A stretch of 42,541 bases of DNA, from IMG/VR virus record IMGVR_UViG_2529293215_000009; one strand, 5' to 3'. The translations under genes and the position numbers were made by a program. The notes beneath the pieces were generated by a model that worked only from the letters and a program-made list of their open reading frames with translations, did not search any database and was not told the origin of the DNA. The DNA comes from a virus. Its lineage: Duplodnaviria; Heunggongvirae; Uroviricota; Caudoviricetes. Position 1 is the stretch's first letter; each line of letters starts with the position of its first letter. Shown here piece after piece: positions 39,890 to 40,781 of the stretch.

Positions 39890-40090
39890 ATGTATCGAAA
39901 CATACGGTGCCGACACTGCAATAAGCTACTGGCACGGGCCAGTTTCAGTTATCTGGAAGTAAAATGTCCGCGCTGTAAAACCCTCAATCAAATCACATCT
40001 CCGAGCGCCACAGAGCACCCCACATACACAAGGAAATCCTGTCGTGGGGAACAGAAAGCAAGTCACATCCCGAATCATCAGCACGCCTGA
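39890..40090 (+). CDS. com: Com translational activator of mom (zinc finger)
   Basis: ORF 39845..40090, ATG at 39890; [26 protein letters not shown]...EHPT matches Mu Com IRCKNCNKLLFKADSFDHIEIRCPRCK...EHPT. Confidence 0.85.
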
Positions 40091-40781
40091 ACTTATTCGC
40101 TATAACGACAATATCGTTGGTTATGGCTCCCGTGAGTTGCGGGTTGAGACAATAAGTTGCTGGCTGGCCAGACTGGTCATCGTCAATAAACATTACAGCC
40201 ACCGTTTCGTAAATAACTCCTACCTTCATCTGGGCATATTTTCAGAACGGGAACTTGTTGGCGTAATGCAATGGGGTTACGCCCTTAACCCAAACAGTGG
40301 TGCACGCGTCGTAACGGGTACGCAGAACCGAGAATATATGGAGCTTAACCGGCTATGGCTGCATGACTGTATGCCGAGAAACTCCGAATCAAGGGCAATC
40401 AGTTACGCGCTCAAGCTAATCAGGCAGCTTTATCCGCAGGTACAGTGGGTTCAGTCGTTTGCAGATGAGCGTTGTGGCTGTCTTGGTGTCGTGTATCAGG
40501 CAAGCAATTTTGATTATGTAGGCAGCCATGAATCAATATTCTATGAACTTGATGGCGAGTGGTATCACGAGATTTGCAGGAATGCCATTAAACGAGGCGG
40601 ACAACGAGGTGAACATCTGAGGGCTAATATTGACAGAGCCAGTGTTCATAAGTTCCGACAGTTTCGTTACATCCGGTTTCTGAACAAGAGGGCCAGAAAA
40701 CGCCTCAACACAAAGCTATTCAAAGTCCAGCCTTACCCAAAACCACAAACAGTTAAAACTGGTTTGAAAGAGAGTGAATGA
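40044..40781 (+). CDS. mom: Mom-like DNA modification protein
   Basis: 245 aa ORF overlapping the 3' end of com as in Mu; last gene before right end; GTG start uncertain. Confidence 0.7.

Follow-up and report, generated by a model that had tools for sequence, protein, structure and literature searches.

[quoted passage not shown] They make up the rightmost transcription unit of this prophage, which is transposable and of the Sp18 type. The window, i.e. the whole stretch of 42,541 nucleotides that was analysed, contains this 39.2-kb prophage at positions 1690..40909, and the gene that it interrupts is a lambdoid DUF4752 gene. The operon is not novel, as it has already been annotated and published as part of Sp18: window positions 39270-40908 show no difference from prophage Sp18 of E. 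coli O157:H7 Sakai, in which com is ECs_4997 and mom is ECs_4998, both genes having 0 differences and cargo genes and ends being shared. Sp18 differs from the window in its insertion site (sorM versus the lambdoid DUF4752 gene) and in the early region (by about 465 bp), the rest being about 98.9% identical. Among Mu-like phages, Sp18 has been cited for its homologues of Mom and of the regulators of Mom, which are located at the corresponding position (PMC3299994). In RefSeq the two products are named 'Com family DNA-binding transcriptional regulator' and 'Mom family adenine methylcarbamoylation protein', and 233 of the 5426 complete E. coli genomes contain the 1.3-kb com-mom region, at varied sites.

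The likeness to Mu (Mup54/Mup55) comprises the gene order, the overlap of com and mom, the position next to attR, a Com protein with four cysteines, a GUG start codon within a CCCAC/GUGGG hairpin that is preceded by a Com-target hairpin, and two CGATCG Dam sites 13 nt apart. The coordinates of all features are given in Table 1.

Table 1. Features of the com-mom region and of related parts of the prophage (window positions).
Feature	Position	Strand	Description and basis
Mor/C-family late transcription activator	12207..12632	+	Pfam Mor, E 2.8e-32
Terminator-like hairpin	39589..39618	+	13 pairs, then a T-rich tail; closes the upstream cargo genes
Five-GATC (Dam) cluster	39669..39842	.	Sites at 39669, 39704, 39715, 39826 and 39839
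Perfect 9-bp inverted repeat AATCGATCG-N7-CGATCGATT	39822..39846	.	Carries the last two GATC sites
Shine-Dalgarno sequence of com (AGGAGG)	39875..39880	+	Read from the sequence; aligned with the Mu com Shine-Dalgarno sequence
com	39890..40090	+	66-aa putative zinc-ribbon translational activator; Pfam, PHROG, Cys pattern
Com RNA target GAGCGCC-ACA-GAGCACC	40003..40019	+	Predicted; match to the SELEX motif
Translation-inhibition hairpin	40018..40049	+	-12.6 kcal/mol; directly 3' of the Com motif
mom	40044(GTG)..40781	+	245 aa; Pfam, PHROG, PDB 8BV8, alignment with Mu Mom
attR, prophage right end	40828..40909	-	Three TTTGATAC transposase-site-like repeats and terminus ...GCGCTATA

Com was identified by its matches to Pfam PF10122 (Zn_ribbon_Com; 46.9 bits at a cut-off of 22.9, E 1.9e-12) and to phrog_13819 ('gpCom control of modification', E 7.8e-13). 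The protein is 47% identical to Mu Com and 4 aa longer. An N-terminal pattern of CxxC-N15/16-CxxC is expected for Com proteins, and the zinc-ribbon residues Cys7, Cys10, Cys26 and Cys29 (CxxC...CxxC) align with Cys6, Cys9, Cys26 and Cys29 of Mu Com. An NCBIfam scan gave only a sub-threshold zinc-finger match for Com and no match for Mom. The preliminary description of this DNA had recognised a Mu-like Com zinc finger and its overlap with the start of a 245-aa open reading frame, and both observations are borne out by these data: the overlap amounts to 47 nt, and the segment 39890-40781 that had been singled out extends exactly from the ATG of com to the stop codon of mom. The corresponding overlap in Mu is 50 nt if counted from the GUG of mom, and 80 nt if the annotated ATG is taken as the start.

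The Mom candidate had previously been called by position and context only, and its family membership is now confirmed. A search with HMMs of the Mom family was clearly positive, with a full-length match to Pfam PF25680 (258.9 bits at a cut-off of 27.1, E 4e-77, profile positions 1-202 of 202). The protein also matched phrog_1384 ('Mom-like DNA modification protein', E 1.4e-83) and the solved structure of Mu Mom (PDB 8BV8, 'Methylcarbamoylase mom', E 4.5e-124). Alignment with Mu Mom is gap-free with 182 of 229 residues identical (79%), the protein of the window having 2 extra residues at the N-terminus and 12 at the C-terminus. Mutagenesis of Mu Mom has pointed to H48, Y49, R101, S114, D139 and Y149 (231-aa numbering; PMC7261163) and, in later work, to W48, H58, Y59, R111, S124, D149, R151, Y159 and W181 (241-aa numbering) as well as to an essential HTH-like insertion (PMC13219725). 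All ten residues shown in this way to be important are identical in the Mom protein of the window (among them W40, H50, Y51, R103, S116, D141, R143, Y151 and W173), and the HTH-like insertion aligns with that of Mu Mom without gaps. Comparison of mom with Mu mom yielded a pN of 0.17 and a saturated pS of 0.79, which indicates long-term purifying selection on mom; the saturation of synonymous sites makes dS not computable for this pair, and the short com segment gave meaningless values.

The modification introduced by Mu Mom, an enzyme of proven activity, is N6-carbamoylmethyl-dA (6-NcmdA; older names N6-methylcarbamoyl/acetamido adenine). It arises when an adenine in an SAS context receives glycine from Gly-tRNA(Gly) and the product then rearranges on the base (PMC13219725). 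The SAS context holds 27.9% of the adenines of the prophage. By homology to Mu Mom, the protein encoded in the window should be a GNAT-fold, tRNA-dependent adenine N6 carbamoylmethylase. It would thus share the GNAT fold and the use of an aminoacyl-tRNA donor with FemX-type tRNA-dependent GNAT acyltransferases, but is predicted to differ from these in its acceptor, the adenine N6 in duplex DNA, and in the HTH-like insertion that is absent from FemX (PMC13219725).

All sequence elements of the translational switch of Mu are present. The reading frame of mom is closed by a stop at 39960, and the GTG at 40044, which is homologous to the GUG of Mu, is the sole start codon beyond it. An upstream ATG as start codon of mom, following RefSeq practice for Mu, was rejected on these grounds. 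The bipartite motif GAGNNCC(N)2-3GAGNNCC that was selected by SELEX for Com (PMC6483171) has a single match in the 42.5-kb window, where 0.05 matches would be expected, and this match is located 25 nt before the GUG. A cognate target of Com, CC(N)2-3GAG within a short hairpin, is expected immediately 5' of a hairpin with the start codon of the effector, and the predicted target is located in this position. It forms a short hairpin in which positions 40005-40008 pair with 40015-40018, interrupted by one C.A mismatch that is not present in the stem of Mu. Among six relatives, compensatory changes were found in three of the four pairs and 98% of the cells were paired; the covariation score was reached by 2 of 500 shuffles. 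An energy-only (minimum-free-energy) fold of the target in the window favours a 2-bp alternative. The adjacent translation-inhibition hairpin has an outer stem of CCCCAC (40018-40023) with GUGGGG (40044-40049), so that the GUG start codon is part of the 3' arm, and an inner stem that pairs the GG of the mom Shine-Dalgarno sequence (AAGGAAA, 40030-40036); Shine-Dalgarno sequence and start codon are thus both buried. Compared to Mu, the loop is 9 nt longer and the Shine-Dalgarno sequence is paired in addition (-12.6 versus -9.5 kcal/mol). No variation of the outer stem was seen in six of six close relatives, which include Mu and four sequences fetched from bacterial genomes. More distant com-carrying relatives feature unrelated hairpins in which the Shine-Dalgarno sequence or the start codon is likewise buried, one of them with a compensatory GCCAC/GUGGC stem. 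By analogy to Mu, we infer that Com binds to its target and activates translation of mom.

Some Mom homologues (seven loci from Yersinia, Serratia, Sphingomonas and others) have no recognisable Com zinc-ribbon ORF upstream, and gating by Com is therefore not universal in the Mom family. The Mu-like prophages FluMu, Pnme1 and B3 have cassettes at their right ends in which com lies ahead of a DNA-modification gene and controls it (PMC3299994); the effector of these cassettes is a methyltransferase, in contrast to the true Mom of the window.

[quoted passage not shown] Similarity to lambdoid DUF4752 genes that carry no insertion picks up again at 40909, and a target-site duplication brackets 1690..40909. 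The TTTGATAC repeats (9 matches versus 1.09 expected) occur three times at each end of the element, namely at 1707, 1802 and 1854 (left end, plus strand) and at 40828, 40863 and 40885 (right end, minus strand). The three observations together delimit the element to 1690..40909 and place the stop codon of mom 128 bp from the right terminus. In five of five independent insertions, i.e. the window (1686-1689 and 40909-40913) and four further loci, the right junction reads ...GCGCTATA, and the next 4 bp are a copy of those that directly precede TGTAACC; a fifth base of the repeat matches in only two of the five. A 4-bp duplication was also marked by the depositors of record LC727895. The left end begins with TG and the right end is ...CTATA, with TA instead of the canonical CA of Mu. 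The combination of 5'-TG...CA-3' termini and a 5-bp target duplication that is typical of Mu was not found in the five insertions; the junctions rather indicate a right terminus of TA and a duplication of 4 bp instead of 5 bp. The comparison also ruled out a 5-bp target duplication with a terminus at 40908.

The gene set of the prophage is complete and, according to the RefSeq annotation of an identical copy, includes repressor, transposase A and B, gam, the Mor/C-family activator, lysis, head and tail genes, an invertible tail-fibre segment and the invertase. Lambdoid early-region genes (DUF4752, Ead/Ea22 and DUF551, assigned by Pfam and PHROG) flank the prophage on both sides. The remaining parts of the interrupted DUF4752 gene are located at 1656-1689 and 40909-41186. 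The exact right junction was searched for in complete E. coli genomes, and no genome with the same insertion was found. Sister copies are located in DUF1367, sorM, dcuC and other sites, several of them within other prophages, and the prophage was found at at least five different insertion sites. With transposase A/B, repeated end sites and varied insertion sites, the element is a Mu-like transposable prophage. Rfam at gathering thresholds detected no RNA family and ARAGORN no tRNA in the whole window. A 'tRNA-OTHER' annotated by RefSeq in sister prophages (corresponding to window position ~19839-19918, minus strand) is unsupported, since neither ARAGORN nor Rfam finds a match in the window. 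The proposal that the element encodes an anti-restriction modification of adenine gains support by homology, as the putative Mom is a close relative of Mu Mom with the key residues kept and the Com switch present, and is also backed by a prophage that looks complete and has inserted at many sites.

Note that, contrary to the situation in Mu, gin and com are separated by three cargo genes and a terminator. Mu does not have these three genes, which are located at 36623-39272, after the invertase gene and ahead of com. One of them encodes a protein of 679 aa that combines a sialic-acid acetylesterase (SASA) domain with DUF6645 and is NanS-p-like, as in Stx phages; the other two correspond to DUF1378 and DUF826. 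The strong terminator-like hairpin closes the upstream genes, and com-mom consequently needs its own promoter downstream of it. A 154-aa 'hypothetical protein' annotated by RefSeq on the minus strand (39311..39775) crosses the terminator hairpin and is represented by two ORFs in LC727895. Conservation of this ORF is limited to the C-terminal ~55 aa (CPAC...CPAC, zinc-ribbon-like), and the call is therefore probably too long or spurious.

The transcriptional control region of com-mom differs in layout from that of Mu. It contains five GATC sites in 174 bp, compared to one per 322 bp window-wide, and this cluster presumably is a methylation-sensitive control region. Control of Mu mom reportedly involves Dam and OxyR (Hattman 1982; Bolker and Kahmann 1989). 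The last two GATC sites of the window are 13 nt apart and resemble GATC II and III of Mu in spacing and flanks; the inverted repeat that carries them has a predicted fold of -11.4 kcal/mol as RNA. Of the three GATC sites of the Mu type (spacing about 18 and 13 nt), two with the 13-nt spacing have been kept and the third has been lost, while the three sites furthest upstream are additional. The distance from the last GATC to the ATG of com is 51 nt in the window and 76-83 nt in Mu and four other relatives. According to the alignment, the window lacks about 30 nt of this interval, and in Mu and Mu-type relatives it is this stretch that contains the C-box (ATAAyCmC) and the -10 element. A relative from Edwardsiella has the same compressed layout; the distance is 51-54 nt in the window and in this relative, and the C-box/-10 block is missing from both.

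No promoter was detected by a sigma-70 consensus scan of the plus strand between 39620 and 39890, and a search for k-mers that lys, I, P and com have in common in their upstream regions, meant to define the C-box of this phage, gave only weak and unconvincing matches, e.g. CCTTCACYGT ahead of lys and com. Comparison with Mu late-promoter sequences revealed a C-box-like AATAATCACC at 39754-39763, which is a candidate only. The Mor/C-family gene is located directly upstream of the lysozyme gene, as is C in Mu, and is named 'positive regulator of late transcription' in the Sakai record. Its product presumably is the activator of com-mom transcription. By analogy to Mu, com-mom would thus be transcribed late, in an activator-dependent and Dam-sensitive manner.

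From these elements the following course of events can be proposed. The operon would be transcribed during late lytic growth, probably in dependence on the Mor/C-family activator and with sensitivity of the GATC cluster to Dam. In the resulting mRNA the ribosome-binding site and the GUG of mom would be locked in the hairpin. Com, produced first from the same mRNA, would then bind just 5' of the hairpin, as it does in Mu, and its binding would open the hairpin and allow for translation of mom. If it acts like Mu Mom, the enzyme would move glycine from Gly-tRNA(Gly) to the N6 of S-A-S adenines in double-stranded DNA, and the glycyl group would rearrange to N6-carbamoylmethyl-dA, a modification expected to block many restriction enzymes.

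It could be that the genes of com and mom are intact in an operon that is transcriptionally silent or differently controlled, the Mu-type promoter and the C-box having been lost and foreign cargo and a terminator being present upstream. The shortened distance between the last GATC and com with its missing block of about 30 nt, the terminator-like hairpin and the failure to find a sigma-70-like promoter on the plus strand are all in line with such a state. However, activator-dependent promoters are normally missed by consensus scans, and a C-box-like sequence is present further upstream (39754). The same compressed layout has moreover been retained by the distant Edwardsiella relative, many E. 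coli genomes share the region without change, and mom is under strong purifying selection, all of which speaks against this possibility, and we consider it unlikely.

Neither is there much reason to assume that a Mom-family enzyme with altered chemistry or specificity is encoded, i.e. one that uses another aminoacyl-tRNA donor or another target context than Mu Mom. The 21% of residues that differ from Mu Mom, the different N-terminal segment and the 12-aa C-terminal tail would leave room for such a change, but an identity of 79% is well inside the range of orthologues, all residues known to affect activity are identical and the HTH-like insertion is free of gaps; a change of this kind is quite improbable. 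Only a very slight chance is given to the assumption that com-mom is a decaying, functionless relic in a defective prophage. It is true that many O157 prophages are defective (PMC2669165) and that the right terminus of the present element ends in ...TA and not in the canonical ...CA. Sp18, however, was predicted to be intact in the same study (PMC2669165). The prophage has a full gene set and occurs at no fewer than five different insertion sites, neither ORF is disrupted, the catalytic residues and the regulatory RNA are conserved, and no frameshifts affecting most copies are seen among the sequences examined. A functional orthologue of the Mu operon thus remains the favoured interpretation.

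Near-identical prophages were observed that keep com together with the Com target, the hairpin that inhibits translation and the GUG, and in which mom is replaced from about codon 5 by a gene for a 350-aa C5-cytosine methylase (PF00145, E 2e-42). The breakpoint corresponds to window position ~40058. This variant is present in 10 of the 233 E. coli genomes with this com and also in a Mu-like insert of the Stx1a phage LC727895 (1793-2999 of locus L029). The exchange of the effector under control of Com has a parallel in FluMu and Pnme1, which carry adenine methylases. It is conceivable, although we put this forward only tentatively, that the Com-gated slot of the Sp18 lineage is an exchangeable anti-restriction cassette with rewired transcription, in which recombination just after the GUG swaps mom for a methylase. 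In this reading the Dam-sensitive palindrome would probably lie within the transcript or at its start, the Mu-type C-box and promoter ahead of com having been lost.

Beyond correct annotation the significance of the operon is small, and its variation opens no new question. The natural variants, i.e. the mismatched target, the longer hairpin, the rearranged promoter and the methylase swap, are nevertheless useful for studies of RNA recognition by Com and of mom regulation. The module predicts that virion DNA of a prophage that is widespread in Shiga-toxin-producing E. coli would contain N6-carbamoylmethyl-adenine and would resist many restriction systems, and this predicted modification would bear on the horizontal spread of such DNA as well as on its cutting or sequencing.
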